Of a stretch of DNA of 64,000 nt, positions 19,836 through 37,610 are shown one piece after another. This stretch comes from an uncultured Pseudomonadales bacterium. GTDB taxonomy: Bacteria; Patescibacteriota; Microgenomatia; UBA1400; PJMF01. Within the stretch, counting starts at the first letter, position 1. Each line of letters starts with the position of its first letter. The translations under genes were made by a program, and so were the position numbers. The notes beneath the pieces were generated by a model. That model did not search any database, was not told the DNA's origin, and saw only the letters and a list, made by a program, of their open reading frames with translations. The stretch is taken from contig CAYOIJ010000004.1 in the NCBI GenBank assembly GCA_964404025.1, positions 782-64,781 of the forward strand, in the 5' to 3' direction.

Positions 19836-22268
19836 ATGTTAACTGCCCAAAATAATCAACCAGATGATGCGGGTCAGGTTCAGCCAGTGGTTGAACCGAC
19901 TGCTACTCAAGAACCGACACAAAATCAAGATGCAACTGATGTGGTGCAAATTGATCCTAATTTACAACAGACAATTGACAATTTAGCTCAGGATTTAGAC
20001 ACGAGTTCTCCTCCACTGGAGGATAATAGCCAAAGCTTGCCAGAAGAAAGTTCTCAAAACAATGTTTTGGATAATCAAAAATTAGAACCTGTAAATCAAA
20101 GCGCAGATTCCAGTCAGATAGAAGTTCCTCAATTAGATCCAGTCAATATCATCCCAGACCAAGGGGTTGAAGTACAAAATGACACTGCCCCAACGGCTGG
20201 CGTAGACATTGCAGAGCCGATTTTTTCTCAAGCACCTGTCGCGGAGGCCAATCTTTCACAAGCCAGTCCAGCTAATGTTGACGCCGAGCAAGGCGCCGCA
20301 GTTAATGATCTCAGCAATCAGGGCATGAATGAAACAATTGGGAATGAAGCAGTTACGGCCGAAACAACAACAACTGAAGCAGCCACAACTGAAACTAGTG
20401 ATCTTAGCTTACAAACTCCCGAGCCAACACTTACAGCTGCACCTAGCACAGATAATACAGTGCAGGTGGTAGCTCAACAGTCACCGCTTGATCACTCAGT
20501 AGCACAAAGTAATACTGGGGGTTTTAGTTTTTCTGTAACCAATTCTTTTTTTGATGTCTTGGTTAATAATGGAATTGTTTCGCCCAAACAGGCTGAGGAA
20601 TTAAGGCAGGAAAACTTGAGCACTGGCCATAGTTATGAAGAACTAGTATTGAACAAACAATTAGCAACTGAGTCGGATGTTGTTCAAGCTAAGGCAGAAT
20701 TTAATAATCTACCCTACATTAAATTGTCCGCAACTGGTGTTGACCCAGAGGCTTTAACTCTTCTTGACGAAGGCATTGCTAAACGCTATCAAGCCTTACC
20801 CTTTAGCTTAGACAAAGAAAAGAAAAGTCTGCAAGTGGCAATGGCCAATCCTTTAGATTTAGCAACTATTGAATTTTTAAAACAAAAAACAGGTTACAAA
20901 ATAGACGCTTATTACAGTGAGAGTAGCGAAATTGCCCGAATGATTGAGGAGCGTTATTCTCAGAGTTTATCTAGCGAAGTTACTGAGGCACTCAAAAGCA
21001 CTCATCAGTATAAAGAAAAGGGCAAAGCAGATATTCAACTTGATCAACAAGCTGGAGCTATTTTGCGAGATGCGCCAATTAGTCGAATTGTTGAAAATAT
21101 TTTAGATTTTGCTATTAAATCTTCAGCTTCTGACGTTCACATTGAGCCTCAAGTCAACCGTACTCGAGTCAGATATCGTATTGATGGTATTTTGGCTGAA
21201 AAATTAATTTTGCCGCAAAATGTCCATGAGGCGGTAGTTTCTCGGATAAAAATTATGGCCAATCTAAAAATCGATGAAAAAAGATTGCCACAAGACGGGC
21301 GTTTCAATTATAAGGCCAATAATGCCGAGGTTGATTTGCGTACTTCTACTCTACCGACGGTGCACGGTGAGAAGGTTGTGATGCGTCTCTTACAAAAAGA
21401 CATGGCTGTTCCTTCACTGGAAGATTTAGGCATGACTGGCTTAGGTTTACAGAGGGTTAAGGAAGCGATTAAAGTTCCTTATGGAATTATCTTAATCACT
21501 GGCCCTACTGGCTCAGGTAAAACTACTACTCTTTATTCGATTTTAAATATTATCAATAAGGTGGGGGTTAACATTATGACCCTCGAGGATCCAGTTGAGT
21601 ACCAAATTCCTGGAGTTAGCCAAGTACAAACCAATCCTAAAGCAGGCTTAACTTTTGCTTCGGGACTGCGTTCTTTCTTGCGTCAAGATCCAGACGTGAT
21701 TATGGTCGGAGAAATTCGTGATAATGAGACTGCTGATTTGGCGCTGCAGGCTTCTTTAACTGGTCACTTAGTTTTCTCTACCCTACACACTAATAGTGCT
21801 GCTGGTGCGCTACCCCGTTTGTTGGATATGGAAGCAGAACCATTTTTATTGGCTTCATCTATTACTTTAGCGATGGGACAGCGAGTGCTAAGAAAAATTA
21901 ACCCAGCTTACAAAGAAGAATATCAGCCTGAAGCAGTAGTAATTGAAGATATTAAAAAAGTTTTGGGGACGCATTTTGATCGTTGGTGTAAGGACAATGG
22001 TAAAGATCCTAATAAAATTACTCTTTTCCGGCCCAGTAATAAACGACCAGCGACTGAACCAGAATACAAAGGTAGAATTGGTATTTTTGAAGTAATGCCT
22101 ATTTCTCCAGACATAGCAAGCCTAATTCTTAATCGAAAAGCAGCTAGTGAGCTTGAAAAAATTGCTGTTCAGCAGGGAATGCTTTTGATGAAACAGGACG
22201 GTTATCTAAAAGCCTTAGACGGTATTACGACTATTGAAGAGGTTTTACGGATAGCCGAGGTTACTTAA
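19836..22268 (+). CDS. pilB: Type IV pilus assembly ATPase PilB (GspE family) with long disordered N-terminal extension
   Basis: Walker A 'ILITGPTGSGKTTTLYS', Asp box, Walker B 'DVIMVGEIRD', His box, tetracysteine-region equivalents, and a GSPII N-domain around aa 270-380. The first ~250 aa are Q/T/P/D/E-rich low complexity. RBS AAAGGAG. Confidence 0.9.
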   Translation: MLTAQNNQPDDAGQVQPVVEPTATQEPTQNQDATDVVQIDPNLQQTIDNLAQDLDTSSPPLEDNSQSLPEESSQNNVLDNQKLEPVNQSADSSQIEVPQLDPVNIIPDQGVEVQNDTAPTAGVDIAEPIFSQAPVAEANLSQASPANVDAEQGAAVNDLSNQGMNETIGNEAVTAETTTTEAATTETSDLSLQTPEPTLTAAPSTDNTVQVVAQQSPLDHSVAQSNTGGFSFSVTNSFFDVLVNNGIVSPKQAEELRQENLSTGHSYEELVLNKQLATESDVVQAKAEFNNLPYIKLSATGVDPEALTLLDEGIAKRYQALPFSLDKEKKSLQVAMANPLDLATIEFLKQKTGYKIDAYYSESSEIARMIEERYSQSLSSEVTEALKSTHQYKEKGKADIQLDQQAGAILRDAPISRIVENILDFAIKSSASDVHIEPQVNRTRVRYRIDGILAEKLILPQNVHEAVVSRIKIMANLKIDEKRLPQDGRFNYKANNAEVDLRTSTLPTVHGEKVVMRLLQKDMAVPSLEDLGMTGLGLQRVKEAIKVPYGIILITGPTGSGKTTTLYSILNIINKVGVNIMTLEDPVEYQIPGVSQVQTNPKAGLTFASGLRSFLRQDPDVIMVGEIRDNETADLALQASLTGHLVFSTLHTNSAAGALPRLLDMEAEPFLLASSITLAMGQRVLRKINPAYKEEYQPEAVVIEDIKKVLGTHFDRWCKDNGKDPNKITLFRPSNKRPATEPEYKGRIGIFEVMPISPDIASLILNRKAASELEKIAVQQGMLLMKQDGYLKALDGITTIEEVLRIAEVT

Positions 22269-22330
22269 AACAGATGGCTTGTGTAAGCTGTAACCGGGCA
22301 TATATAATGAATGAATAAGGAGTTTAGTGA

Positions 22331-23389
22331 ATGACTATTCAAGAAATATTACAATTTTTAATTGACAATCAGGGGTCTGATGTTCATATTATTCCTGCTT
22401 CCCCACTTGCCATTCGTGTCAATGGAGTTTTAAGTTTTCCTGCAGGACCTCAGGCTATTGGTCCAGAGCAAACTCAAGCTTGGATTTTTGAATTATTAAG
22501 TGAAGCGCAAAAGCAAAAATTGAAAGAAAACAAAGAAATTGATCTGGCTTACCAATTTGGTGACAATGCCCGTTTTCGTATTTGTGTTTATCAGCACTTG
22601 GGTAATTATGCAGCAGCTCTGCGCTTAATTCCTCAAGAAATCAAAAGCATCGATGAACTAGCTTTGCCAAAAATTTTCCATCAATTTACAACTTACAACC
22701 AGGGTTTAGTGCTCTTTACTGGTCCCACTGGTGAGGGTAAATCAACTTCTCTAGCTGCCATTATTGATGAAATTAATCGCACTCAGAGTCAACATATTAT
22801 TACTATTGAAGACCCAGTGGAATTTATTTATCGGCCAGATAAAAGTGTGGTCTCGCAGCGTGAAATTGGTAAAGATACTCACGAATGGCACTTGGCTTTG
22901 AAAAGTGCCCTGCGCTCAGACCCCGATGTAGTTTTGGTTGGTGAAATGCGTGATTTGGATACAATTGCGGCCACTTTAACTCTGGCAGAGACGGGTCATT
23001 TAGTTTTTGCTACTATTCATACCAACACAGCTGGCCAAACCATTGACCGTATTATCGATGTTTTTCCTGCCCATCAACAAGGTCAAATTCGTCAGCAACT
23101 AGCCAGTGTTTTGCGGGCAGTAGTTTCTCAGCGTCTAGTAGCAAAAATTCATGGCGGCAGAACAGCCGCAATTGAATTGTTATTTAACAATTCAGCTATA
23201 GCCAATTTGATTCGTGACTCTAAGGTGTTTCAAATCGACAGTGTGATTCAAACTAATCTGAATGCTGGCATGATGTTGATGGAAAATCACTTGTTTGACC
23301 TTTATATTCAAAAAATTATTAGCAAAGAAACAGCTATTCGTAGCTCTTTTCGTCCAGCAGATATGCTTCGCTTGTTAGAAAATAACTAA
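22331..23389 (+). CDS. pilT: Twitching-motility (retraction) ATPase PilT
   Basis: 'VLFTGPTGEGKSTSLAA', 'DVVLVGEMRDLDT' and 'ATIHTNTAGQTIDRI' typical of PilT; 352 aa. Confidence 0.9.
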   Translation: MTIQEILQFLIDNQGSDVHIIPASPLAIRVNGVLSFPAGPQAIGPEQTQAWIFELLSEAQKQKLKENKEIDLAYQFGDNARFRICVYQHLGNYAAALRLIPQEIKSIDELALPKIFHQFTTYNQGLVLFTGPTGEGKSTSLAAIIDEINRTQSQHIITIEDPVEFIYRPDKSVVSQREIGKDTHEWHLALKSALRSDPDVVLVGEMRDLDTIAATLTLAETGHLVFATIHTNTAGQTIDRIIDVFPAHQQGQIRQQLASVLRAVVSQRLVAKIHGGRTAAIELLFNNSAIANLIRDSKVFQIDSVIQTNLNAGMMLMENHLFDLYIQKIISKETAIRSSFRPADMLRLLENN

Positions 23390-23397
23390 GGCTTGTT

Positions 23398-24600
23398 GTG
23401 CCAATTTTTAAATATATAGCTAAAAATAAACGTGGTGAAAATATTAAAGGTAAGGTGGAAGCAGCCTCCAAAATGCAGGCAGTCTCTACCCTGTTTTCGA
23501 GAGATTTATTTGTCATTGATGTCAGTAGTCTTGGCCAGGAGACAGGTTTTTTTTCTAAAATTTTTAAACCAAAAGTTAAATTTACTGAACTAGTTAATTT
23601 TACTCGACAGCTAGCAACGATGATTAATGCTGGTTTGTCTTTGGCTAGTGCCCTATCGATTCTAGAGGAAGAGGGCGAAAACGAAATGGCTAAGTTAACT
23701 GGCAACTTGCTTAAAGATGTAGAAAGTGGCTTAAGTTTTTCAGATGCTCTGCAAAAATATCCAGATAATTTTTCAAGAATTTATGTGCAGTTAGTCAGAG
23801 CTGGAGAAGCCGGCGGTGTGCTAGATGAAGTATTGGAGCGCTTAGCAATTACTTTGGAAAAAGACAAAGATTTTAAGGCAAAAACCAAAAGTGCCATGAT
23901 TTATCCAGTCATTATTTTGATAGCGATGTTGGCAGTGGGAGCAGTGATGATGATTGCTGTAATTCCTAAATTGACAGAAATGTATGATGATTTTGGCGCA
24001 GAATTGCCTGGCATGACTAGATCTTTGATGGCAATTTCAGGTTTTATGGTTAAGTTTTGGTGGTTGATGTTGCTACTGGGTATAGCAGGAGGCGCGATTT
24101 TGCGCTCTTACAAAAAAACAAAAAAGGGCGAATTAGCTATTGATCGCTGGTTATTGAAATTGCCCATTTTTGGCAAAATGCGCCAAAAAATAATTTTGAC
24201 TGATTTTACTCGCACCCTTTCTTTATTGTTGGGCGCAGGAGTGTCTTTATTGGAATCAATTAATATAGTAGCTCATGCTATTGATAACGCAGTTTATCGC
24301 GAAGAATTAGCTGAAGCAGCCAAACAAGTAGAAAAAGGAACCTCACTGTCAATGGCAATATCTCGCTATCAGGATTTTCCTTCGATCCTGCATCAGATGA
24401 TGAGTGTTGGCGAAGAAACTGGCAAACTTGATGAGATTTTACAAAAATTGGCAGAATATTTTGAAAAAGAGAGCGAGTATGCAGTCAAAAACATGACTAC
24501 TGCTATGGAGCCGCTCATTATGATTGTTTTGGCAGTGGGGGTGGGTTTTATGGTGGTGGCGATTATTATGCCAATTTATAGCTTAACCAGTCAATTTTAA
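23398..24600 (+). CDS. pilC: Type IV pilus platform protein PilC (GspF family)
   Basis: Two T2SSF repeats, each followed by membrane helices; 400 aa; directly follows pilT. Confidence 0.85.
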   Translation: MPIFKYIAKNKRGENIKGKVEAASKMQAVSTLFSRDLFVIDVSSLGQETGFFSKIFKPKVKFTELVNFTRQLATMINAGLSLASALSILEEEGENEMAKLTGNLLKDVESGLSFSDALQKYPDNFSRIYVQLVRAGEAGGVLDEVLERLAITLEKDKDFKAKTKSAMIYPVIILIAMLAVGAVMMIAVIPKLTEMYDDFGAELPGMTRSLMAISGFMVKFWWLMLLLGIAGGAILRSYKKTKKGELAIDRWLLKLPIFGKMRQKIILTDFTRTLSLLLGAGVSLLESINIVAHAIDNAVYREELAEAAKQVEKGTSLSMAISRYQDFPSILHQMMSVGEETGKLDEILQKLAEYFEKESEYAVKNMTTAMEPLIMIVLAVGVGFMVVAIIMPIYSLTSQF

Positions 24601-24693
24601 ATTGCTACTTGAAAAGCTGTTAAAAAATAAGTTACACTGGATATACGAATAAGCAAGAATTACTTGCGATTAGTAGTTATCAAAAGACAAATT

Positions 24694-25332
24694 ATGCAAA
24701 TCAAATCTTTTTACCCAAGGTTAAAAAAACAATTAGGCTTCACCATGATCGAGTTACTAATTGTAATTGCCATTTTGGGTATTTTGGCAGTGGCTGTCTT
24801 ATCAGCAATTAATCCAATTGAACAGATTAACCGTGGCCGAGACACAGGTACTCGCTCCGATGCAGAGCAATTGGTTACAGCTATTGATCGTTATTATGCG
24901 ATGAAAGGAATTTATCCATGGATGGATGCAGCTTCTGATCCGGTCGCTTACCCCTGGACAATGGTGGGATTGACGGATAATTTAGGAGCTCCTACCTTTT
25001 TGAGTACTGGTGGCTGCCCAACGCTTTATCGACTAAGTGACATGCCAGCGACTCCGCCAGCTGAATGTGGAACTGAGGTTGGTACCCAAGAATTAAAAAT
25101 TGGTTTTGTCAACAAAGTTGATGCAGACACTTATAACAAGCTCTATGTGTTTCATGATGACCAAAACTATGATTCAACCTATGTTTGTTTTGAACCAAAA
25201 TCTAACTCTTTCCAACAAGAGGCAGATGATCGTATAACAGCTGGTGTCCCAGATGACTATCCAGCAGATGCTTATGCTCAACCTGCTGACGGACACTGTG
25301 GTCCAGGAGGAAACTGTATCTGCTTACCATAA
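24694..25332 (+). CDS. Major type IV pilin (prepilin)
   Basis: Canonical class III signal 'KKQLG|FTMIELLIVIAILGILA' (G at -1, E at +5). The ORF-track frame opens at 24664 (TTG); the ATG at 24694 gives a 15-aa leader. A strong intrinsic terminator follows the stop. Confidence 0.8.
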   Translation: MQIKSFYPRLKKQLGFTMIELLIVIAILGILAVAVLSAINPIEQINRGRDTGTRSDAEQLVTAIDRYYAMKGIYPWMDAASDPVAYPWTMVGLTDNLGAPTFLSTGGCPTLYRLSDMPATPPAECGTEVGTQELKIGFVNKVDADTYNKLYVFHDDQNYDSTYVCFEPKSNSFQQEADDRITAGVPDDYPADAYAQPADGHCGPGGNCICLP

Positions 25333-25350
25333 TGAATTAAGTTTAAAACT

Positions 25351-25381
25351 AAAACCCGAGTCCTAGCACTCGGGTTTTTTT
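25351..25381 (+). terminator. Rho-independent terminator after the major pilin gene
   Basis: AAAACCCGAGT-cctagc-ACTCGGG followed by TTTTTTT: a 7-bp GC-rich stem and a T-tract. Confidence 0.75.
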
Positions 25382-25392
25382 GTTATGATGAG

Positions 25393-26241
25393 GTGATGGT
25401 ATTATTTTTTACTTATTATCTTGTTTTTGCCTTACTCTTATTTTTATTTGCTGCTATTTTGGCTAGTTTTTTAAATGTAGTGATTTATCGAACTGCAGCT
25501 GAATGTGAACTGATCAAGGATCAAAAAGGAAAAGTGCTAAAATTAGCTCCTTTTTGGCGTGGGCGATCACTAACTGATTGTTGTCAGCGATCAATTCGAG
25601 CTGGTGACAATATTCCCCTTATTTCATTTTTATTATTAAAAGGTCGCTGTCGCTATTGTCAAAGTAAAATAGCCAAGCACCACTTTAGTAGTGAACTGTT
25701 ATCTGGACTTTATGCCTTGTTTTTTGCCTGTATTGTTTATTGGCAAATAAGTGCTGGACAATTATTAAACCCGATTACCCTAACCGCTCAATTTTTGTTT
25801 TTTTTACTTTTAATGTTTGTGGTAATTGCTGATTTTCGATACCTAATTATTCCTGATTTTTTTATCGTTTTATTGAGTATTTTAGCTATTTTTTTGGCTT
25901 GGCCAAATTATTTAAGTGCTTTGATTGGGACTGTGATTTCTTCAATCTTTTTTGTTCTCCTCTATTTTTTAGCCAGCTGGATTTTTAAAAAAGAAGCGAT
26001 GGGCTTGGGAGATATTAAGCTCATGCTACCTTTAAGTTTTGTTCTGGCATGGCCCAGGGTGTTGTTGGCAATTTTCCTTAGCTTTATTGTTGGGGGTATT
26101 TTTGCTACAATTTTATTGCTATTTAAACAGAAAAAAATTGGTCAAAGTCTGCCTTTTGGACCTTTTTTGGTTGTGGGTTTTATACTTAGTTATTTTTGGG
26201 CAGAGCCAATTTGGGCTTGGTATTTAGCTCTTTTTTTATGA
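25393..26241 (+). CDS. pilD: Prepilin peptidase PilD (A24 family)
   Basis: N-terminal tetracysteine zinc motif (CCQRS...CRYCQ), 8 TM helices, and the catalytic 'GLGDIKLM' aspartate motif. Confidence 0.85.
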   Translation: MMVLFFTYYLVFALLLFLFAAILASFLNVVIYRTAAECELIKDQKGKVLKLAPFWRGRSLTDCCQRSIRAGDNIPLISFLLLKGRCRYCQSKIAKHHFSSELLSGLYALFFACIVYWQISAGQLLNPITLTAQFLFFLLLMFVVIADFRYLIIPDFFIVLLSILAIFLAWPNYLSALIGTVISSIFFVLLYFLASWIFKKEAMGLGDIKLMLPLSFVLAWPRVLLAIFLSFIVGGIFATILLLFKQKKIGQSLPFGPFLVVGFILSYFWAEPIWAWYLALFL

Positions 26242-27254
26242 GAATTATTCGGATTTTTTTCTCAACTTTAGCTTTGATTTCGCTCTTTTTATTACTAGCT
26301 ATTTTTTTGGGTCGGGAAATTTTACTGATTATGGCAGTTAGTGATTTAAAAAGAGCTAGTGTTTTTCTCAGAGAAGAGCGACATTTAGCCAATTGTCAGG
26401 ATGGTTTTGCTATTTCTTCTACAGCTTGGGGTCAAATGCGCTTTGAAAATGAGCACGATTATCACTTAGAAAGTGTCTGTAGTAGTTTTGCAAGTAAACC
26501 AATTTTTCTTGAGGAGAGACAGCTACCTATTTTTGTTAAAAAGGTCGCTGGTGCTTCAGGCTTTATCTTTGATCATGAAAAAAACCCCAGTCAAATTACT
26601 CTGAGCAGTTTTGGTAAAGAAATAACTGTCTATAGTGAAGACAATCAGCTCGAGTCGGGTCAAGCTCCTGAGTTGAGCTATATAGTTGGCCCAGTTAGTT
26701 CTTGTCAGTCTTTTAATTATCGCTGTTGCCAAGAAGAAGTGGAAAAAGGTGTGGGAGAAGTGCAATCTTTGGCAAGTGACTGCCCCAAGGCTTGTTTTAA
26801 ATCTTGTTTAGCACGACCTTTAGTTTTATCTTTTAATGCCATGGGTTCAAATTTGGCCAATGATGGTGTCTTGTACACTAATTCAGGTAGGAAAAATACT
26901 TTTACTTTTGTAGTAAGTGACGGTAAGCAAGAGTTGTTTAGCGACCAAGTTTTAACTAAGCAAAAGCCAAGCGGCATTGCTGGCTTACAAGATCGTTTAG
27001 AAAATTTGATTGCAGTATTTAGTAAATTAGATAATAGTAGTATACAGCAAGCTAAAATGCCAATTACCACCACTATTTTTTTTGGTGATGGTCAAAACTA
27101 TAGCACTCAAGATTTGCAAGGAGCAGTTGATCACATATATACTTGCAGTGAGACAGTGTGTTATTTTGATGCTTGGATTGAAGCTCAGGATGCAAGATTA
27201 ACGCCATCACTTTTGACCGAACTAAATCGTTTGACAGTAATAGTAAACAATTAG
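26238..27254 (+). CDS. Cys-rich membrane-anchored hypothetical protein, translationally coupled to pilD
   Basis: ATG at 26238 overlaps the pilD TGA stop (ATGA). N-terminal TM 'IIRIFFSTLALISLFLLLAIFL'. Cys cluster 'CQSFNYRCCQEE...DCPKACFKSC'. Confidence 0.4.
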   Translation: MRIIRIFFSTLALISLFLLLAIFLGREILLIMAVSDLKRASVFLREERHLANCQDGFAISSTAWGQMRFENEHDYHLESVCSSFASKPIFLEERQLPIFVKKVAGASGFIFDHEKNPSQITLSSFGKEITVYSEDNQLESGQAPELSYIVGPVSSCQSFNYRCCQEEVEKGVGEVQSLASDCPKACFKSCLARPLVLSFNAMGSNLANDGVLYTNSGRKNTFTFVVSDGKQELFSDQVLTKQKPSGIAGLQDRLENLIAVFSKLDNSSIQQAKMPITTTIFFGDGQNYSTQDLQGAVDHIYTCSETVCYFDAWIEAQDARLTPSLLTELNRLTVIVNN

Positions 27255-27262
27255 AGGATTTT

Positions 27263-27715
27263 ATGAATAAACAAAAACAAAAAGCTTTTACCTTGTTAGA
27301 GTTACTAGTGGTAATAGCCATCATTGGCATCTTAATTTCTTTGGGTGTGGCTAGTTTCTCCAATGCTCAAAAAAAATCACGTGATTCGCGTCGTCGAGAA
27401 GATCTAAAGGCGATGCAAAATGGTTTAGAACAACATTATGCTGATTATACTAGTTATTCTAGTTCTTCAGGTCATGACGAACAAGGTTTAACAGGAATTT
27501 TATCTGGTTTAAATAGTGCCAGCGAGTATTTTCCAGCTGGAGCTCCAGTGGATCCGAGAAATCAAAATCCCTATATCTATCGAGCTAGTTACAACAATAG
27601 TTCTTATTGTTTGTGCGCTCTTTTAGAGAGCCCTGGTACAGGCAATTCTAATTCAAGAACCTGTGCTGGGTTTGTGGCAAACGGTAATTATTTTTGTGTT
27701 AGCAATTTACAGTAA
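27263..27715 (+). CDS. Minor type IV pilin / pseudopilin
   Basis: 'KQKA|FTLLELLVVIAIIGILISLGV' prepilin N-terminus with Ala at -1 and Glu at +5. RBS GAGGA. Confidence 0.75.
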   Translation: MNKQKQKAFTLLELLVVIAIIGILISLGVASFSNAQKKSRDSRRREDLKAMQNGLEQHYADYTSYSSSSGHDEQGLTGILSGLNSASEYFPAGAPVDPRNQNPYIYRASYNNSSYCLCALLESPGTGNSNSRTCAGFVANGNYFCVSNLQ

Positions 27716-27737
27716 ATTAAAATTCTGAAAGATATTT

Positions 27738-28157
27738 ATGAAAAAAAAAGAAAAAAAACAAAGTGCTTTTACCCTGATTGAAGTGTTGGTGGTGGCCACT
27801 ATTTTGGCAGTGCTATTATCTGTCGCAGTTGTTTCTTTTTCCAATGCTCAGAGAAAATCACGCGATGCCAGGCGTAAAGCAGATTTAGAAACGGTGCGAC
27901 AAGCTTTAATTCTTTACCGACAGGACAATGGTAGTTATGGCAGTATTGGTTCGGATAATACTGGTTTTAATAACTTAGTTACTACTCTTTATAATGAAGA
28001 GTATTTAACCACTCCCACAGTAGTTGATCCTAAGAATGACGTTAGTTATTTTTATAGCACTGCTTGTCCAAGCGCTGACAATCCCAATTGTAGCAAAGTT
28101 AGGTTAAGTACTACTCTTGAATCAGACGCTTCCACTTATGAAATTTTCACTCCATAA
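27738..28157 (+). CDS. Minor type IV pilin / pseudopilin
   Basis: 'KKQSA|FTLIEVLVVATILAVLLSVAV' prepilin N-terminus. Confidence 0.75.
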   Translation: MKKKEKKQSAFTLIEVLVVATILAVLLSVAVVSFSNAQRKSRDARRKADLETVRQALILYRQDNGSYGSIGSDNTGFNNLVTTLYNEEYLTTPTVVDPKNDVSYFYSTACPSADNPNCSKVRLSTTLESDASTYEIFTP

Positions 28158-28620
28158 ATCTTCAGCCTACTCTCTGATTGAGCTTTTGGTTTCGATATCA
28201 ATTGTCTTGATTTTAGTATCAAGTGCGCTGGCTGGTTATATTCGCTACAGTGATAAACAACGACTAGTGGCAGCAGCAGAAAAACTAGAAACTGGCTTAA
28301 AAGAAGCACAAAATATGGCAAGAATTGGTTATTTAGGGACTTGTGATGAGCTAGCGGGGGTTAATTTAATAACTAGCTCTTATGGAACTGCTGGTATCGC
28401 CTATCAAATTAGCATATTATGTGAACCATCTGGCTCGGACCTCATGCCAATTGTTAATTTAGATGAAGATTTACTAATTGATGCCCCAATTAATATTACT
28501 TTTAGACCTTACAATCACCTCGGTAATTCTACCAGCGTAAGATTAGACTCTGCTCGCAGTAATTACTATGCTGTTTTTGATATTGATCAGGGAGGCGGTA
28601 TTAAAGTTACTTATCATTAA
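28138..28620 (+). CDS. Minor type IV pilin-like protein
   Basis: 'MKFSLHKSSA|YSLIELLVSISIVLILVSSALAGY' with Tyr at +1 and Glu at +5. Start taken at the ATG at 28138, which overlaps the end of the previous pilin gene. Confidence 0.6.
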   Translation: MKFSLHKSSAYSLIELLVSISIVLILVSSALAGYIRYSDKQRLVAAAEKLETGLKEAQNMARIGYLGTCDELAGVNLITSSYGTAGIAYQISILCEPSGSDLMPIVNLDEDLLIDAPINITFRPYNHLGNSTSVRLDSARSNYYAVFDIDQGGGIKVTYH

Positions 28621-28627
28621 ATTAGCA

Positions 28628-29128
28628 ATGAAAAACATAAAAGATTTTTATAAAGATAGAAAGAAAAAGCAGACAGGCTCAACTTTTATTGAGGTTTTAG
28701 TAGCAATGGTAGTGGTGGCGACAGTGTTGACTGCTTTGGGCTCAATGATGGCTTTGTCAATGAGAGTGGCTGAAGCCAATGAAATGGAGCAATTAGCCCA
28801 GCTCAAAGCCCAACAAGTGCTAGAATTTTTTCGCAAGGAGCGTTTGGTTAGAGGTTGGATCACTTTTTTTAGTAGTCTAGATAATGGAGATTATTGTCTT
28901 AGTCCCTTGCCTGATAGTATTGATAATATTAGTCCTGCCCCCTGCCCCACACCTCTTACAGTACTCAATCATTTTTACTACAAAATTGAAACCAATGTTA
29001 GTAAGGATACTGCTGTCGATGAGGAAAGTGTTCAACTAGAAGTAAGTGTTTATCGCTATAGCAAGGGAGGAACGTTGTTGGGCAATGGAGCCTTTTTTAC
29101 CCTTAATCAGGTTTTTAAACAATATTAA
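28628..29128 (+). CDS. Minor pilin-like protein (PilV/PilW-like)
   Basis: 'MKNIKDFYKDRKKKQTG|STFIEVLVAMVVVATVLTAL' with Gly at -1 and Glu at +5. Confidence 0.55.
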   Translation: MKNIKDFYKDRKKKQTGSTFIEVLVAMVVVATVLTALGSMMALSMRVAEANEMEQLAQLKAQQVLEFFRKERLVRGWITFFSSLDNGDYCLSPLPDSIDNISPAPCPTPLTVLNHFYYKIETNVSKDTAVDEESVQLEVSVYRYSKGGTLLGNGAFFTLNQVFKQY

Positions 29129-29138
29129 ACAATGGTTT

Positions 29139-29651
29139 TCAATTACGTAGACTAACTCCTGAGCTAAAATCTAGTTGGCTGTGACTGGCGCTAGGATCAC
29201 TAGCAGCACTACTAGCTAGAGTAAAACTAATTTCAACATATTTTGCTCCAGAGTCAATGTTGTGACAAACAAACTCTAAATCTCTGAGTTGATTGCTGCC
29301 GGCACCCGGACTACTACTTAAGAAATAAGTGTTGGTATCAGAAACTAAAGCTATTTTGTCATCTATATTGCTAAAAACACTAATCACTTCATCTGCGCTA
29401 GTGAATTCTAAAGTGGGGCTAGGACTACCATCACAAGTAGAAGTAATACTTTTAGCGTTACGCAGTTCTTCAATCATTTTTTGCATAGCAGAACCACCAT
29501 TTTCTCGAATACTTTGACTGAGGCGGGCTTTTCCAGCCGAAACAATGAAGCTAATAAACAAGCTGGTCATACCCATCATTACCAAAACAGTAAGACTGGA
29601 AGTAACCAAGAGTTCAATTAGGGTAAAGGCGCTTTGCTTATTAGAGCTCAT
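29139..29651 (-). CDS. Type IV pilin-like protein (convergent operon)
   Basis: 'MSSNKQSA|FTLIELLVTSSLTVLVMMGMTSLF' prepilin N-terminus. Confidence 0.7.
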   Translation of the reverse strand: MSSNKQSAFTLIELLVTSSLTVLVMMGMTSLFISFIVSAGKARLSQSIRENGGSAMQKMIEELRNAKSITSTCDGSPSPTLEFTSADEVISVFSNIDDKIALVSDTNTYFLSSSPGAGSNQLRDLEFVCHNIDSGAKYVEISFTLASSAASDPSASHSQLDFSSGVSLRN

Positions 29652-29680
29652 TGTGCTGATTTCTTATTTTTAATAAGAGA

Positions 29681-31573
29681 TTAATTGTCAAAACTTCGAG
29701 GAGCAATTTCTCGCCAATTAATAATACTAACCTTAAGCTCGTCTGGCCAATTGATTAAAAGATCAGGTCGATAAAGAAAATTTTCCAAAGCCTGAATGTT
29801 GTTTATCTCTTTGTATGATTCTGTGGCGGGCGTGTTGTCATCAGTTTGGCGATTGAGCTCAATGCCTTCAAGACCAATAAAAGTGCCAGCAGCAATTAGT
29901 TTACGATCTGGATAACTGACAAGAGCAGAGTCTTGTTCTTGGCCGTTGACAACAATTTTTTGATTACTAAAGAAAACTCCCTCTAAGTGGGTATTATTAA
30001 AATTAACAGCTGGGTTGTTGAGACTGACTGGATCGAGAGTGGTGCCGACATTAGAGCGAATAATAATATCTTCGGTAGTGAAAAAAGCTAAGAAGCCACC
30101 AGTATTAGCACTGGTTTTTCTAGCGACACTGATGATTTTGGCGCCACTAGCACCGGTATTATCAATGGTTAGTGAACCATTGACAAAGACAACAACACTT
30201 TCCCCATGGTTGACTATAAAATTTTTACTTTGATCAATAGTTAAATTACCATTAACTTCGAAAAAATTTGTTTGGGAACTTGTTAACCAGCCATTATTAC
30301 GCCAATTAAGCAAATTGGTTTCAGCTGGGGTTAGCTGGTGCAAAGTTCCACCAATATTATTTGCCAGTTGTTTAAAGTAGTTATAACTCAATGCTTGAGG
30401 GTTAAAGCCTAAGGCGAATCCGTCTGAACTTTGACTACTAGTTCGTTGACTAGTTAAGTGAATATTAGCTAAGTGCTCATTGGAGTCAATATGAGTTTGT
30501 ATTGAATTAAGACTGGTGCTGGTAAGTAGTGGAAAACCACTGGATAAATTATCATTAGCGGGTTGAGGGACAAAAATGCCAGCCTGACAAGTAGGTAGTA
30601 AGCAGTTATTGGCATTGGGCCCAATTGATCTGAGTAGGTTTCGAGTAAAAGCGTTAGCTCCAAAAATTTGAAACCAGCTTTCTGAATAATTGTTAAAGTA
30701 AAAATTGCGAGTAAGTGTGTCACCTACCGGAACATTTAAGGCGTAGCTACAACCAACTGGACAAGTACAAGAATATGTAAAATCTTGGACATTGGCAGTT
30801 ATGGTCAAAGGATCTCCTTCAGCTATTTCATCAAGATTAAAGTTATAAGTATGGCTATCGATTAAACCATGATTAAAAACGGGATCACTTTTAAGTTGTG
30901 ATTGTAAAAACACTCCATCAGAGTAATTGTTAGCGTTAGTATGACTACAACTATTGCTAGCTGGATTATAGGTAGCACTACTTGATTGATAAAAATTAAC
31001 AGTCACCTCTAGTTGTTTGGTAGGTATGTTTGTCGGCGTTGGTGGTGGATTTGTCGGTGGAGGTCCACTTGTCGGTGTGGGGTTCCAAGGGTCATCATCT
31101 CCCCCTTCGTTTCTTGCGCAGCAGCTCCAGGTTCGGCTACCATATTTTAACTCACAGCCATAATTGGAAGAATTACAACCACAGACATCCCAAGGATAAG
31201 CCCCATCCCAGTCGTCCCGACACTCTTCGTTTCTGGTACATGTTCCACCACCCTGTTGACATCTGCATGTTTGTATTGGTGCTGAGGTTAAATCACATCT
31301 GATACCTCCATATATTGTGCAAGTGCATTCATCGTTGGTGCATGTACAACTATCACCTGTGTAGCCATTGCCAGCACAGTAATTACTCAAACCCCCAGCA
31401 GTACCACTGTAAGCAATAAATCTACAGCCGGTATACCACACCATGCTTGATTGTTGTGATCCATAACAATACCAACCATCTCCACAACGATCATCTGCTT
31501 GAATAGGTGACAGTTTAACCGCTATTGTGATTGCGATAAAGAAAGAGATGAGTAAAAAGATTTTTTTAGTCAT
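29681..31573 (-). CDS. Secreted Cys-rich / beta-rich large protein, putative pilus-associated adhesin
   Basis: Signal peptide 'MTKKIFLLISFFIAITIAVKLSPIQA'. ~140-aa domain with ~30 Cys (CTCTNDECTCT..., CRCQQGGGTC...). Pro/Thr linker 'PTPTSGPPPTNPPPTPTNIPT', then ~440 aa rich in N/S/T/G. Co-oriented with and immediately upstream of a pilin gene. Confidence 0.4.
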   Translation of the reverse strand: MTKKIFLLISFFIAITIAVKLSPIQADDRCGDGWYCYGSQQSSMVWYTGCRFIAYSGTAGGLSNYCAGNGYTGDSCTCTNDECTCTIYGGIRCDLTSAPIQTCRCQQGGGTCTRNEECRDDWDGAYPWDVCGCNSSNYGCELKYGSRTWSCCARNEGGDDDPWNPTPTSGPPPTNPPPTPTNIPTKQLEVTVNFYQSSSATYNPASNSCSHTNANNYSDGVFLQSQLKSDPVFNHGLIDSHTYNFNLDEIAEGDPLTITANVQDFTYSCTCPVGCSYALNVPVGDTLTRNFYFNNYSESWFQIFGANAFTRNLLRSIGPNANNCLLPTCQAGIFVPQPANDNLSSGFPLLTSTSLNSIQTHIDSNEHLANIHLTSQRTSSQSSDGFALGFNPQALSYNYFKQLANNIGGTLHQLTPAETNLLNWRNNGWLTSSQTNFFEVNGNLTIDQSKNFIVNHGESVVVFVNGSLTIDNTGASGAKIISVARKTSANTGGFLAFFTTEDIIIRSNVGTTLDPVSLNNPAVNFNNTHLEGVFFSNQKIVVNGQEQDSALVSYPDRKLIAAGTFIGLEGIELNRQTDDNTPATESYKEINNIQALENFLYRPDLLINWPDELKVSIINWREIAPRSFDN

Positions 31574-32282
31574 TGATAAGTTTGTAGCTTACTACTGGCC
31601 AAAAGTAGCGCTTACCACTTACTTCTGGTAAAAATTGTGTATCGCCAGTTTGATAGAAACTTGTTAAATCTTCCATGGTGTAGGGCGGATTGGATTCCAA
31701 CAATGTTTCAAAGGCAGCTCCTCTGGTTTTTTCAAGCCTTAGTTCGGCACTGGGATAATCAAGGTCAACTTTAATGCTTTTACCCACGGCCACACTTTCC
31801 CCCCAAAAAGTCTCAGTCATGGCCTCGTACCAAGTTAGAGAGGTAATCTCGGCAATTTGTCTGATTAAATCCTCATCTGGTTCGATTTGCATATCTGCTC
31901 CAACCAAGAGATACTCCATTTTTTCAGGATGATAAATGTGGAGTGGCAAATGGATTATTTCGACTTCTTGCAAAACATTCAAGTATGAACAGGCAATATC
32001 TGCCAAGACTTTCCACCCCCCAGGAACAACAGGAGCTCGTTGATAATTGCGATATTGATTGATATTTTCAATTTGACACTCTAAGCGATGAATCTGAAAA
32101 AATTCCCCTTGTTCTGGAACGATGGGAAACTGATTTGTTTTTTGTTCTTGACCTTGATAGTGAACGATCGGTTGAGGGTTCGAGTTTTGTTGTAGCCGCA
32201 TTTTGCGCCAAAAAAACAAAAAAATACTTGTAAAAAGAAGAAGAATCAATAGAGCTAACAGTAAGTAATTTTTTTTCTGCAC
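31566..32282 (-). CDS. Membrane-anchored hypothetical protein
   Basis: N-terminal TM 'YLLLALLILLLFTSIFLFFW'. Overlaps the start of the downstream adhesin-like gene by 8 nt. Confidence 0.35.
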   Translation of the reverse strand: MQKKNYLLLALLILLLFTSIFLFFWRKMRLQQNSNPQPIVHYQGQEQKTNQFPIVPEQGEFFQIHRLECQIENINQYRNYQRAPVVPGGWKVLADIACSYLNVLQEVEIIHLPLHIYHPEKMEYLLVGADMQIEPDEDLIRQIAEITSLTWYEAMTETFWGESVAVGKSIKVDLDYPSAELRLEKTRGAAFETLLESNPPYTMEDLTSFYQTGDTQFLPEVSGKRYFWPVVSYKLIND

Positions 32283-32340
32283 TAGCCATTAGTCTAAAGA
32301 TTTTTTTGCCAGCTGACAAGGCCTATTTTATTTATTCAGT

Positions 32341-33519
32341 CTATGGCAGTGCTTGCCAGTGTTGTGGGAATGGAGGTCCATCTGGATTGCGCCATTGTTG
32401 TGAATCATTTGCCCAACTTGCTACTTCCTCAATGAAGGTTTGGTTTTGGTAGTTGTCTGTCGTTGACAAAGTGGCGTAATTGACAAAGGGGTAGATAAAA
32501 GGGATTTCAATACCGGTTTTGCTATCAAGCATGAAGTAAGGAAAAAGATCAGTGTTACCTGTGTTTCTAAAATCAAGCATTTGCTCTTCGCTGTAGCTTG
32601 GGTCTTCTACCATTCCAGCGCCACCAATAAACTCTTCATTGCCTGGATATTCACTATCAAAATTGATAAAGGCACCCGGTCCCATCCAATAGCCTTGTTT
32701 TGCATAGTTCGTCATAAATGAGACCCTAAAATCATAATCTGGATTATAATTAAAATTAGGATTGCTGTAATTGCTTATTATATCTCTAAAATGATGTCCG
32801 CTATCTATTTGACTTGCATATCTAGGAGGAGAAAATATGGGGCTTTTGTCCCACATCAATTCTTTTTCAATTTCCCAAATGTCAATGGGTAGTAGCACCA
32901 TTTGGTATTGGCCGCTCGCATTTTTGTAAATGGCTTCGATCCAGGCCATGATTTTTTTGTTGGCAGCTGTGGTGGGTGCTTGGTCGTAGCGAGCTTGGCT
33001 ATTGAGAGAATCTACACCAACAACCAGCATGGTTTTAAAGACTCGATCATCACTAAAACTAGTTTCAAGAGCCTCCATAAAACCCTCTAAGTCTTGAATT
33101 TCACTAAACCAAAGGTTGTTTGAATTATCTATATTTTCTAGATCAATGCCTGCTTCTCTAGCTCGTTGAATACAGTATTCATGCATGTTTTCAGCTTCAG
33201 TTTTTTCTGGAGTAGCGGTATTTTCTGGGGTGGCAGTGTACTCTGGGGTGCTAGTTGCAGTTATTGTTTCAACAATTGTTTCTTCGCCCTCGCCAGGGAC
33301 ATCAAGCCCATCAATAGTTTGAGTGATGGCCGGTCTAGTTTCTTGGGCTTGTCCTTCTGGGGTACAAGAAGTGAGAATGAAGGTGGCCAAAGTGACAAAG
33401 CCCAGAGCTCTATAGACCTCCGCTTTTATCTTAGCCATCTTGATTGGCAAATTTTTTAAAGATTCAGGCAGTTCTTGTTTAGAGCTAATTTTTGCCTGTT
33501 TGTTTTCAATCTTGTTCAT
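32341..33519 (-). CDS. Putative lipoprotein / anchored secreted protein with Thr/Pro/Glu-rich linker
   Basis: 'MAKIKAEVYRALGFVTLATFILTSC' resembles a lipobox signal (an internal start at 33438 is possible). The repeat 'TATSTPEYTATPENTATPEKTE' is followed by a ~280-aa globular region. Confidence 0.35.
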   Translation of the reverse strand: MNKIENKQAKISSKQELPESLKNLPIKMAKIKAEVYRALGFVTLATFILTSCTPEGQAQETRPAITQTIDGLDVPGEGEETIVETITATSTPEYTATPENTATPEKTEAENMHEYCIQRAREAGIDLENIDNSNNLWFSEIQDLEGFMEALETSFSDDRVFKTMLVVGVDSLNSQARYDQAPTTAANKKIMAWIEAIYKNASGQYQMVLLPIDIWEIEKELMWDKSPIFSPPRYASQIDSGHHFRDIISNYSNPNFNYNPDYDFRVSFMTNYAKQGYWMGPGAFINFDSEYPGNEEFIGGAGMVEDPSYSEEQMLDFRNTGNTDLFPYFMLDSKTGIEIPFIYPFVNYATLSTTDNYQNQTFIEEVASWANDSQQWRNPDGPPFPQHWQALP

Positions 33520-33671
33520 TACCGCCTTCCTTTATGTATATTATATAAAGACTCAGTATCAGGTCATTATATCACAAACCCTCAGCTCTCCCCTTGCCTT
33601 TTAGCTCTTTTGCCCTTAGAATAAAGCCCTCATTTAGGATAAAATACGTAAAACAAATAAAAAGGAAACTC

Positions 33672-33830
33672 ATGGGAGCCCTACCAAAAAATAAAATTAC
33701 TAAAGTTGAGCGAGGCAAGCGTCGTGCTGGTAATAAACCCAGTCTCAAAAAAGATGCTAAACGCGCTTCTACCCCAGCCCACAAACAGGGTTTGGTAGCT
33801 AGTATTTTTAAAAAAATCGGCCTTAATTAA
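33672..33830 (+). CDS. rpmF: 50S ribosomal protein L32
   Basis: 'MGALPKNKITKVERGKRRAGNKPSL' matches the L32 N-terminal pattern (PK.K.SK..R.KRR). AAAGGAAA RBS 6 nt upstream of the ATG at 33672. The 5'-extended ORF-track version (from 33594) is rejected. Confidence 0.55.
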   Translation: MGALPKNKITKVERGKRRAGNKPSLKKDAKRASTPAHKQGLVASIFKKIGLN

Positions 33831-33911
33831 AGCTTTTTTGAGTTTTCTCTTGACTAAAAGGAGATTATTTTCCCTCTTGCAAGTTTAGCTTTTTTCCCCT
33901 AATCTACTGCT

Positions 33912-36137: not shown

Positions 36138-37007
36138 TCAATTGTCAACCGTTTCTTCTATAAGTTGTCCGTCTTCGTCATAAGTCTGCCACTCTACCTC
36201 GTCTAATTCAGTTTGACTAGCTTCCAGTTGCGCTTCTAATTCCTCAATACTCATTCCTTGTAAACCAAAGAGATTGCCTCGGTCATTTTTTAGGACTTCT
36301 TCTTGGATTGGCAAGTTGCCGGGAATCAACTTTTTAATTTCTTCCAGGATGATTAGTTGATCGTTAGCTATTGGTGGCAATGGTTCTGTAATGGTGACAC
36401 TAATAGGCTGAGTAAAATAAAAGGTTTTTAGTGTTAAGTTGGCAGTCGTGTTGACTGAGCCAAGTTCATTAACTTCTCGACTGAGAGAGATATTGGTAAT
36501 AGTGCTAATGGGAGTAACCTGCTCAATGAGTGTCATAAAGCTTTGTACATTTCTAAGTGTGCCTGAAACAGCAAATTCCAATTCTAGTTCGTCATAGTTT
36601 TTTTGTTTTTTAGTTTTGCTTAAAAGAGTGCTGTCGGTAGCGATCTCTCCTGGAGAGAGGGAAAAATTTTCAACTAGAGTTTCACTCTGAATAGATACAT
36701 TATTGAGGTTATCTAGCAACTCTAATAGGGGTTTGTGTGAAGGCAGGACCTCATCAATTTCACTCATTTTTTTAAACTCACTATCAAAGGCCATATTGGC
36801 TAGTTCGTCAGCTTTGGTTTGAAATTTATTTAATTCTTGATTGGTTTTATCTAGTTCAGCAAAAACCGCCTTGATGGGAGTGATTTGTCGCAGAATTACC
36901 ATGGTAAAAATTACAAATGATAAGGTAAAAAACAAGATTGCTAAAACTAGTTCTTTGCGAGTATTCCAAATGAGCTTGTAGTTAAATTCTTGTTTATTAA
37001 CTGACAT
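36138..37007 (-). CDS. pilO: PilO-like type IV pilus assembly protein
   Basis: N-terminal TM, then a coiled coil; lies directly downstream of the pilM-pilN genes. Confidence 0.45.
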   Translation of the reverse strand: MSVNKQEFNYKLIWNTRKELVLAILFFTLSFVIFTMVILRQITPIKAVFAELDKTNQELNKFQTKADELANMAFDSEFKKMSEIDEVLPSHKPLLELLDNLNNVSIQSETLVENFSLSPGEIATDSTLLSKTKKQKNYDELELEFAVSGTLRNVQSFMTLIEQVTPISTITNISLSREVNELGSVNTTANLTLKTFYFTQPISVTITEPLPPIANDQLIILEEIKKLIPGNLPIQEEVLKNDRGNLFGLQGMSIEELEAQLEASQTELDEVEWQTYDEDGQLIEETVDN

Positions 37008-37610
37008 TTAATTATCTTCTTCCTCAATTAAGTCACTATTTTCTGTACCCAATAAACCTAAGTCTTCAACAGTTTTGAGTTGAATTTTTAGACTAAGTTG
37101 GTAGTTTCCTTGGTCTTCTCTTTTCAAAGAAGTTTTTTCAACATTTTTATAAACATCTTTAACTAGAGAAGAATTAATAATTGCCATACTCTCTTCTAGT
37201 GGAAAAACACTGCTGTGATCTAATTGAAGAATTAAACCACCACTGCTTTCGTTGTAAGTCATGCCAGTGATTGTGGCAACATCAGTCATTAAATCAGCAA
37301 AATAATTCATGGCTGCTTGTTTATCACTTCGTGCGGAATAAATTTCACCAACTGATTGGAGTTTATTGACAAAGATTAGGTAAGATAATTCTATTTCTTC
37401 TTGATCAAGAATGGTCTTTTTTAATTTAGCGATTGTTTCTACTTTGTTTTTGATTCTTAAATTGACTAGTAGTCTGAGTCCCACAACAGCCAACAATAAA
37501 AAGACTACTGTTGACAGAACAATAACAGCTATTTTAAACAATTTTTTATCTTGTTGTTTTTCTTTTTGTTTATGTCTGGTCTGACTAGACAAAAAATTAA
37601 TTTCAATCAT
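37008..37610 (-). CDS. pilN: PilN-like type IV pilus assembly protein
   Basis: 'MIEINFL' N-terminus (the INLLP-like PilM-binding peptide), a single TM, and coiled coil; 4-nt overlap with pilM. Confidence 0.55.
   Translation of the reverse strand: MIEINFLSSQTRHKQKEKQQDKKLFKIAVIVLSTVVFLLLAVVGLRLLVNLRIKNKVETIAKLKKTILDQEEIELSYLIFVNKLQSVGEIYSARSDKQAAMNYFADLMTDVATITGMTYNESSGGLILQLDHSSVFPLEESMAIINSSLVKDVYKNVEKTSLKREDQGNYQLSLKIQLKTVEDLGLLGTENSDLIEEEDN

Follow-up and report, generated by a model that had tools for sequence, protein, structure and literature searches.

A secretin-less type IV pilus locus of a Microgenomatia-type bacterium encodes a pilin-linked secreted protein that is a candidate tip adhesin

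Described pilus-tip proteins and the locus under study

PilC/PilY1 complement a PilK-type pilin with a strand formed by their last ~10 residues, and the non-homologous large proteins MshQ (as judged by modeling) and CpaL (by genetics) do likewise; this C-terminal strand addition permits assembly and keeps the adhesin tip-bound (doi 10.64898/2026.02.14.705861). For Saccharibacteria, large accessory "PilX" proteins without a PilD signal have been proposed as tip adhesins needed for host binding, and PilX1 and PilX2 were described as pilin-like "lollipops" with a jelly-roll or RCC1 propeller domain (PMC11623550). Passages of Meheust et al. 2019 (PMC6744442) describe a set enriched in the Candidate Phyla Radiation (CPR), in which PilB, PilT, PilC, PilD, PilM, PilN, PilO, and pilins are co-localized without PilQ. 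Here, we analyzed a stretch of 64,000 nucleotides (nt) of contig CAYOIJ010000004.1 (hereafter, the window; 64 kb), which carries a bona fide type IV pilus locus without secretin from an ultrasmall CPR bacterium of the Microgenomates type. Among CPR genomes, such a locus is unremarkable. Its novelty lies in a large unannotated family that is linked to pilins, carries a terminal anchor motif, and varies in a cassette-like manner, represented by a secreted protein of 630 amino acids (aa), sec630, and in a conserved membrane protein with an apparent PKD-type domain, cys338. Within this locus, sec630 is the best candidate for a pilus-tip adhesin choosing what the cell sticks to, and it would act as a functional analogue, not a homologue, of the PilY1/PilC tip adhesins.

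The sec630 gene lies in the following minus-strand operon, which converges on the core pilus genes.

32341..33519, minus strand: lipoprotein, 392 aa, with an LTSC lipobox and a Pro/Thr/Glu linker; no family match
31566..32282, minus strand: tm238, N-terminally anchored membrane protein, whose stop overlaps the sec630 start by 8 nt
29681..31573, minus strand: sec630, secreted, 630 aa, Sec-type signal, C-terminal end NWREIAPRSFDN; no family match
29139..29651, minus strand: mp5, minor pilin, 170 aa, leader A/FTLIE; Pfam N_methyl 1e-4, weak ComGF/HpsC matches
31008..33310, no strand: hypervariable cassette comprising the sec630 N-terminal domain, tm238, and the mature lipoprotein; delimited by blastn against locus L013

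Similarly to PilC/PilY1 (Neisseria, Pseudomonas, Myxococcus), MshQ, and CpaL, sec630 is a large non-pilin with a Sec-type signal that is encoded inside a minor-pilin cluster. As in PilC/PilY1, its C-terminal part is conserved and its N-terminal part variable, the conserved element reaches the extreme C-terminus, and five minor pilins and a PilX_N-like protein accompany it. However, sec630 has no sequence similarity to PilY1/PilC. The C-terminal beta-propeller domain (Pfam) that defines that family was tested and found neither in 54 members of the sec630 family (44+10, E<=1) nor in the family consensus (E<=10), and no PDB sequence matched; membership in the PilY1/PilC family was thus rejected. 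The C-terminal domain of sec630 (~330 aa) is strand-rich and repeat-like, with no beta-propeller seen in an AlphaFold2 (AF2) model too poor for judging the fold. Furthermore, the sec630 gene comes before a pilin gene rather than after pilX, two paralogous membrane proteins without a counterpart in PilY1 operons are encoded ahead of it, and the envelope is monoderm and without secretin, in contrast to PilY1 systems.

A second comparison is offered by Nanosynbacter lyticus TM7x of the Saccharibacteria (T4P-1 and T4P-2), which shares with the window a CPR affiliation, a type IVa-like (T4a-like) pilus without secretin, and several divergent minor pilins. As with TM7x PilX1 and PilX2, the largest accessory protein lacks a PilD signal. 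Compared by description only, sec630 differs from PilX1/PilX2 in having no pilin-like N-terminal domain and a different C-terminal domain; the PilX_N-like protein of the window, x275, may be a closer counterpart of TM7x PilX1 than sec630. Thermus thermophilus ComZ, which is itself a pilin-fold protein, resembles sec630 as an accessory protein of large size and high beta content that is associated with a minor pilin. In contrast to ComZ, sec630 has no prepilin signal, so it is neither ComZ-like nor a modular pilin; its profile met no PDB sequence at E<=10, where the presence of ComZ among the searched chains was not checked. The window's gene content matches the generic CPR set exactly as far as passages of Meheust et al. 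2019 (PMC6744442) describe it, and the searched passages of that paper contain no mention of a sec630-type family, a PilD-coupled PKD-like protein, or a swappable cassette.

Architecture, pilin linkage, and cassette replacement of sec630

sec630 begins with a Sec-type signal peptide (residues 1-26) and a Cys-rich N-domain (27-160, with 18 Cys), after which come a Pro/Thr linker, a four-Cys beta-sandwich with weak Foldseek matches to CnaB/transthyretin-like and Gram-positive pilin domains (186-295), and the conserved C-terminal domain (296-630). The protein matched nothing in Pfam, NCBIfam, or the PDB sequences, and no PDB sequence was found with the family profile at E<=10. In the AF2 model, at low confidence, the C-terminal domain displayed short paired strands every 25-35 residues, suggestive of a solenoid. 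sec630 has no prepilin motif. Sortase anchoring was also considered and rejected, as neither sec630 nor cys338 contains LPXTG.

A word-indexed search returned nine full-length homologues, while a profile search covering 1.84 billion representatives returned 737 representative clusters at E<=1e-3 and 383 at E<=1e-10. The match to the family comprised the C-terminal ~330-380 residues of proteins of 300-1600 aa, and the domain ended a few residues from the protein C-terminus in ~100 of the 109 full-domain representatives. The last conserved element is ExF[IV][YF]RPD..N.P..[ML]K.....W[QR]E[VI].P, whose terminal W and E were 97% conserved among 118 sequences; the chain ends within ~10 residues after them. 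At the N-termini of other members (54 scanned), scattered Ig, fn3, Big_2, SdrD_B, and F5/8-type-C lectin domains were observed. DUF7305 (PF23981) was tried as a family assignment and rejected; 4 of 44 members matched at E<=1 (best 1.8e-6), the matches with listed scores reached 10.9 and 14.9 bits against a cut-off of 27, the result was non-reproducible, and neither the window protein nor the consensus matched. No mention of DUF7305 was found in the literature.

Next, the genomic neighborhood of the family was analyzed. A metagenome scan with a narrower family alignment, which was used since the broad one was too diverse, yielded 58 loci, and linkage was counted over the 39 loci with a complete host open reading frame (ORF). 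In 31 of these 39, the next same-strand gene was a prepilin of 165-210 aa, and the distance from the family stop to the prepilin start was mostly <=40 base pairs (bp) or an overlap, with a largest gap of ~105 bp, indicating an operon rather than a mere neighborhood. Usually, 3-4 convergent prepilins came after that same-strand prepilin. The linkage persisted down to 25-30% identity and on contigs of 0.4-1.2 Mb. As a control, the prepilin motif used for the count marked 5 of 66 ORFs in the window, all of which were pilins, and none outside the pilus cluster. In the window, mp5 occupies this slot immediately downstream of sec630 on the same strand, and its orthologues were 28-92% identical.

Two tandem sec630-family genes with different N-termini and a single pilin after them were observed in three loci of more distant lineages (L035 4870-8282, L042 5452-8687, and L046 5146-8359). 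Each pair combines a protein of ~615-680 aa, which has a Cys-rich N-domain, and a shorter one of ~445-470 aa.

Replacement of the variable end was analyzed by blastn against the closest relative, L013. The alignment ran at 79% identity as far as 31007 and resumed at 33311 with 90-92%; the 2.3 kb between did not align, and there L005 and L013 carry a different lipoprotein, a different transmembrane (TM) protein, and a different Cys-rich N-domain in the same architecture. Along sec630, identity to the closest relative climbs from 28% in the N-domain to 82% in the last 200 aa. Three close genomes are about equally near the window in housekeeping genes (86-97%), and their identities to the window at the locus were as follows.

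sec630: 87% in L071; 72% in L005/L013 (residues 186-630 only)
tm238: 88% in L071; none in L005/L013
lipoprotein: 77% in L071; none beyond signal/linker in L005/L013
major pilin: 64% in L071; 89% in L005/L013

The affinities of the pilin and of the adhesin cassette are thus opposite among close genomes, indicating that the locus is a recombinant mosaic.

Neither the lipoprotein nor tm238 belongs to a recognized family; no Pfam or NCBIfam match was obtained for tm238, and the lipoprotein/TM family profile met no PDB sequence. The two are related to each other, such that tm238 is paralogous to the C-terminal domain of the lipoprotein (hhalign probability 96.8%, E 2.8e-10), and a similar lipoprotein/TM pair recurs upstream of the sec630-family gene in distant loci. 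Homologues of the lipoprotein (52) fall into two subfamilies. A promoter-like site lies upstream of the lipoprotein gene at 33567-33540, and translation may start at 33438 (MAKIK...LTSC, 365 aa), because close homologues are 359-365 aa long. The window also encodes a PMT-family protein O-mannosyltransferase (62195-63562) and a Wzy_C-type ligase (45737-47050); the Pro/Thr-rich linkers of sec630 and the lipoprotein would be plausible O-glycosylation substrates.

The lipoprotein was compared across its family at window 32341-33519, L072 8001-9143, and L011 10001-12484. The window-type protein was 52-59% identical to stand-alone genes in Anaerolineaceae- or Brevefilum-labelled genomes, but shared only 25-37% identity with its positional counterparts in other Microgenomatia pilus loci. 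Those Anaerolineaceae/Brevefilum-labelled contigs (100-654 kb) carry sugar ABC transporters and a 2-oxoacid dehydrogenase. In L072, the lipoprotein gene sits in a G+C trough of 39-40%, against ~50% in the flanks, which is close to the CPR value of 40.9%. This pattern resembles inter-phylum transfer and may point to a host. A sec630-family gene (579 aa) was further observed in a 2.37-Mb sequence labelled Anaerolineales (OY760067.1; L009 8203-11545) with no pilin nearby. It is preceded by membrane proteins of 367 and 161 aa, neither of which showed pairwise similarity to the window lipoprotein or TM protein, and the trio, which has ParA, Fic, and restriction-modification genes as neighbors, lies where G+C is 33%, as would be expected of a mobile island or an assembly error.

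The pilus machine, its pilins, and cys338

The remaining pilus genes of the window are given below.

19836..22268, plus strand: pilB, extension ATPase, 810 aa; Pfam T2SSE 1e-122, MshEN 2e-18
22331..23389, plus strand: pilT, retraction ATPase, 352 aa; Pfam T2SSE 1.2e-42, AIANLIRD motif
23398..24600, plus strand: pilC, platform protein, 400 aa; Pfam T2SSF 3e-67, two stretches
24694..25332, plus strand: major pilin, ~212 aa, 6 Cys, leader KKQLG/FTMIELL (cleaved after G); Pfam N_methyl 3e-8, NCBIfam IV_pilin_GFxxxE
25351..25384, plus strand: intrinsic terminator 3' of the major pilin gene; 11-pair stem (25351-25378), 5 G-C pairs, T-run
25393..26241, plus strand: pilD, prepilin peptidase, 282 aa; Pfam A24_N_bact 3e-20, Peptidase_A24 2e-13
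26238..27254, plus strand: cys338, single-pass membrane protein, 338 aa, 10 Cys; ATGA overlap with pilD
27263..27715, plus strand: mp1, minor pilin, 150 aa, A/FTLLE, GspG-like; Pfam N_methyl 9e-9, NCBIfam GspG 1e-12 (below cut-off)
27738..28157, plus strand: mp2, minor pilin, 139 aa, A/FTLIE, GspG-like; Pfam N_methyl 5e-8, T2SSG 0.007
28117..28620, plus strand: mp3, minor pilin, 167 aa, A/YSLIE; Pfam N_methyl 5e-5, weak GspH/Ppd-type matches
28568..29128, plus strand: mp4, minor pilin, ORF of 186 aa, G/STFIE; Pfam N_methyl 1e-5, weak PilV/GspI matches
36138..37007, minus strand: pilO, 289 aa; Pfam PilO 1.1e-4, 22.8 bits against a cut-off of 22
37008..37610, minus strand: pilN-like, 200 aa, N-terminus MIEINFL, one TM helix; assigned by position and topology
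37607..38620, minus strand: pilM, 337 aa; Pfam PilM_2 3.8e-41
38633..39460, minus strand: x275, PilX_N-like pseudopilin candidate without Glu5; Pfam PilX_N 4.9e-4, 20.5 bits against a cut-off of 25.5

An initial annotation, made from the letters of this DNA and a list of its ORFs, had described 19836-33519 as a complete type IV pilus locus, and the ORF map placed all of its ORFs where it had put them. The order pilB, pilT, pilC, major pilin, pilD was confirmed by the map and Pfam, as were the canonical major-pilin leader and the strong terminator after it, which ranked top among the terminator-like sites in the 20 kb scanned. The overlap that couples pilD to a Cys-rich membrane protein is real (ATG 26238-26240, TGA 26239-26241), the four minor pilins at 27263-29128 are all N_methyl-positive, and the convergent operon consists of the lipoprotein, membrane protein, 630-aa secreted protein, and pilin that had been read there, with its 170-aa ORF likewise N_methyl-positive. 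Completeness held for the genes named but not for the system; because pilM, the pilN-like gene, pilO, and the PilX_N-like gene lie at 36138-39460, 2.6 kb past 33519 and beyond six housekeeping genes, the pilus system is complete only when this second, minus-strand block is counted in. The absence of PilQ and PilP also stood, as none was detected among the ORFs of the window, in which the other ORFs of >=100-120 aa all belong to housekeeping or other Pfam families. Together with the core family matches and with homologues labelled Woesebacteria and Microgenomatus, this agreed with the proposed pilus of a monoderm, reduced-genome bacterium. As to the accessory proteins, for which no family had been recognized, Pfam and NCBIfam indeed gave no match, except that the C-terminus of cys338 appears to be a PKD-like Ig domain (see below). 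Their positions are conserved across many genomes, and sec630 is pilin-linked in 31/39 loci, so the objection that they might be unconserved ORFs fails.

The machine is a T4a-like secretin-less pilus, as already described for CPR. Its monoderm type IVa-like features were PilB with MshEN, a separate PilT, PilC, PilD, PilM-PilN-PilO, and class III pilins, and a Tad or T4b assignment was set aside, as no Tad-type or Flp families were found among the Pfam/NCBIfam matches of the core genes and pilins. A diderm T4a pilus was considered and rejected, since secretin PilQ with PilP was not found in the 64-kb window. The pilN-like protein gave no Pfam match and was assigned because its gene sits between pilM and pilO with fitting topology. 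x275 likely starts at 39424 (263 aa); its gene was always directly upstream of pilM, with 43-86% identity in relatives. A low-complexity N-terminal extension of PilB (~230 aa, window 19836-20530), rich in Q, T, P, E, and A, precedes MshEN, and long PilB proteins occur also in relatives (776 aa in L001; the 810-aa window protein aligns end to end in L005 and L006).

Six ORFs, namely the major pilin and mp1-mp5, are N_methyl-positive in Pfam and carry class III signals (Gly or Ala at -1, Glu at +5). The start of the major pilin is likely ATG 24694 rather than the listed TTG 24664, and that of mp4 is probably 28628 (166 aa) because its homologues are 165-168 aa. Near-identical genomes carry different alleles of the major pilin, the window protein being 89% identical to that of L005 and 64% to those of L006 and L071. 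An mp1 orthologue was at the same position in all loci compared, and the order of mp2 and mp3 was conserved across loci. In the window's clade, minor pilins have Ala at -1 (A/FTLIE) and the major pilin has Gly, whereas in distant loci L035-L054 all pilins have Gly.

Synteny was then compared. In all close relatives compared, the order is kept entire: recG-x275-pilM-pilN-pilO, the housekeeping genes, and lipoprotein-TM protein-sec630-mp5, followed by the convergent genes mp4-mp3-mp2-mp1-cys338-pilD-pilA-pilC-pilT-pilB and then holB. PilB was 64-79% identical in syntenic loci and PilT 80-93% in relatives, while PilC identity ranged over 84-98% among close relatives and fell to 60-73% in distant loci, and pilO was syntenic in all loci compared. 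The distant loci, for which the comparison covered the DNA from the housekeeping genes (or pilO where reached) to pilC, showed the same order over that stretch, with the five minor pilins and cys338 each recognizable in the same slot. The arrangement with the accessory genes recurs in Microgenomatia/Woesebacteria-type contigs. The six housekeeping genes between the two blocks (33594-36134) are a bL32-like gene, nusB, an ACP-like gene, rnc, rpsP, and a KH-domain gene; this wedge was retained in all syntenic loci down to 45-67% identity, making it an unusually stable super-locus.

On sequence grounds, the genome is of the Microgenomatia type within the CPR. The window has a G+C content of 37%, cys338 orthologues are labelled Candidatus Woesebacteria, and one syntenic locus is labelled Candidatus Microgenomatus. 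Four syntenic contigs, L005-L008 (CAYMSV01, CAYXJQ01, CAYSMC01, and CAZBEW01), are public metagenome-assembled genomes titled "uncultured Pseudomonadales bacterium" and carry the CPR-type locus at 35-88% identity; their Pseudomonadales labels are almost certainly wrong.

In cys338, an N-terminal membrane helix is followed by a beta domain, a Cys-rich stretch that is disordered, and an apparently PKD-like Ig domain at the C-terminus, where FGDGQ...HxY corresponds to the PKD-type signature xFGDG...HxY. No Pfam or NCBIfam match was obtained for the window protein, and its profile gave one chance match against PDB sequences (E 0.22); a distant homologue, P0036, carries precomputed PF00801/PF18911. 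The AF2 model (predicted local distance difference test score, pLDDT, 69) matched only generic Ig/PKD folds in Foldseek, the best being the ColG PKD domain (2y72_A; probability 1.0, TMt 0.72, E 5.5e-3). Among its 24 homologues, some of which are labelled Ca. Woesebacteria, the protein was 26-37% identical in distant loci and always encoded between pilD and the pilin array. Its fixed position and conserved pilD coupling indicate that cys338 is probably a conserved envelope component of the pilus machine rather than an adhesin.

Proposed mechanism, rival explanations, and significance

We propose, with a probability of roughly 0.6, that the locus encodes a retractile secretin-less T4a pilus on which sec630 rides at the tip as a candidate adhesin with a variable N-domain. 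PilB, PilT, PilC, PilD, PilM, PilN, and PilO would assemble and retract a filament of the 212-aa major pilin, and the five minor pilins with the PilX_N-like protein would form a priming or tip complex. sec630 would be exported via the Sec pathway, after which its conserved C-terminal domain and terminal W-x-E peptide would allow the minor-pilin complex to capture it. Tip capture is proposed because the C-termini of PilC/PilY1, MshQ, and CpaL do likewise (doi 10.64898/2026.02.14.705861), and by analogy the extreme C-terminus of sec630 would add a beta-strand to a minor pilin. The variable Cys-rich N-terminal domain, placed at the tip, would then serve as the binding surface, and retraction by PilT would draw the cell onto its target. 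The lipoprotein and tm238 would travel with the sec630 N-domain as a swappable specificity cassette, possibly acting as chaperones, docking partners, or short-range adhesins, while cys338 would be a conserved envelope component of the machine. The sequences themselves document the identities of the genes, their conservation, the linkage to pilins, the domain architecture, and the replacement of the cassette; tip location, strand complementation, and adhesion by sec630 are what we infer from analogy with the described tip proteins, and the adhesion or DNA uptake that the initial annotation suggested for this pilus would be of the same kind.

Several observations weigh against this proposal. The AF2 model of sec630, built from a 9-sequence alignment, is poor (pLDDT 46.8), and its Foldseek search against PDB returned nothing for the C-terminal domain. 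The downstream pilin was absent in 8 of the 39 loci (L004, L009, L021, L039, L055, L056, L060, and L067), one of which lies in an Anaerolineales-labelled chromosome without pilus genes nearby; in L067, prepilins are nearby but convergent. Moreover, many of the 31 positive loci come from related lineages, and because of this relatedness they are not independent events.

One rival explanation is that the convergent operon is a pilus-independent surface module, for instance an adhesin associated with the wall or an enzyme that works with two membrane proteins, and that it merely shares a conserved neighborhood with the pilus genes in a small, gene-dense genome. It would suit the ordinary Sec signal of sec630 without a prepilin motif, the members that have no adjacent pilins in L004, L009, L021, L039, L055, and L060, the stand-alone occurrence of the lipoprotein family in Anaerolineaceae-labelled genomes, and the equal synteny of the six housekeeping genes in the super-locus. 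However, we consider it unlikely, for a prepilin is specifically next in 31 of 39 loci, mostly within 40 bp or overlapping and down to 25-30% identity, the conserved part is the extreme C-terminus instead of a catalytic-looking core, and no enzyme family matched. Alternatively, sec630 and/or cys338 could be structural parts of the envelope-spanning machine, building a channel or collar across the wall or S-layer that would stand in for the secretin in this monoderm lineage. The lack of a secretin in the window and the high conservation of the sec630 C-terminal domain are in line with this, as is cys338, which is PilD-coupled, membrane-anchored, Ig/PKD-like, and conserved in position in distant loci; for cys338 itself, such a role is quite plausible. 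Nevertheless, a hypervariable, cassette-swapped N-domain and lectin/Ig arrays of 400-1600 aa would be unexpected in a structural conduit, and the tandem paralogues with different N-termini (L035, L042, and L046) fit alternative tips better than a fixed channel, so the explanation as a whole appears improbable.

The pilus could also be chiefly a competence pilus for DNA uptake, with sec630 as a tip DNA receptor like Thermus ComZ instead of a cell-cell adhesin. CPR depend on scavenged nucleotides, and type IV pili and competence genes are widespread among them according to passages of PMC6744442. PilT-driven retraction would suit DNA uptake, too. The minor pilins here have Ala at -1, as streptococcal ComG pilins do. 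To our knowledge, however, ComG-type competence systems lack PilT, PilM, PilN, and PilO, all of which are encoded here, so the system is not a ComG pilus; the ComG NCBIfam matches were all far below their cut-offs, and this assignment was rejected. Furthermore, sec630 is not a pilin, its profile has no PDB sequence match (with the above proviso on ComZ), neither comEC nor comEA was found in the window, and variable cell-surface ligands would account for the strain-level replacement of the N-domain more readily than DNA would. We therefore regard a chiefly competence-related role as quite unlikely, noting that DNA uptake and cell-cell adhesion are not mutually exclusive.

Beyond the candidate tip adhesin itself, a more far-reaching possibility, which we put forward tentatively, is that sec630 represents an undescribed, CPR-wide class of pilus-tip proteins that is unrelated in sequence to PilY1/PilC, MshQ, and CpaL and yet follows the same terminal-peptide logic. 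In that case, the strain-exchanged cassette would set host specificity, and the crossing of one cassette gene between this Microgenomatia lineage and Anaerolineaceae would point to these filamentous Chloroflexi as physical hosts.

Apart from the oral Saccharibacteria, hardly any CPR lineage has a known host or means of attachment. A sequence-defined family that is linked to pilins and joins a conserved anchor domain to an exchangeable binding end would provide a concrete candidate for host recognition, and the apparent gene exchange with Anaerolineaceae offers a host hypothesis. The family may also serve as a metagenome marker with which cassette alleles are set against co-occurring hosts, and sec630 as a probe of whether the C-terminal strand-complementation rule reaches a deep-branching, secretin-less lineage with a non-homologous tip protein.

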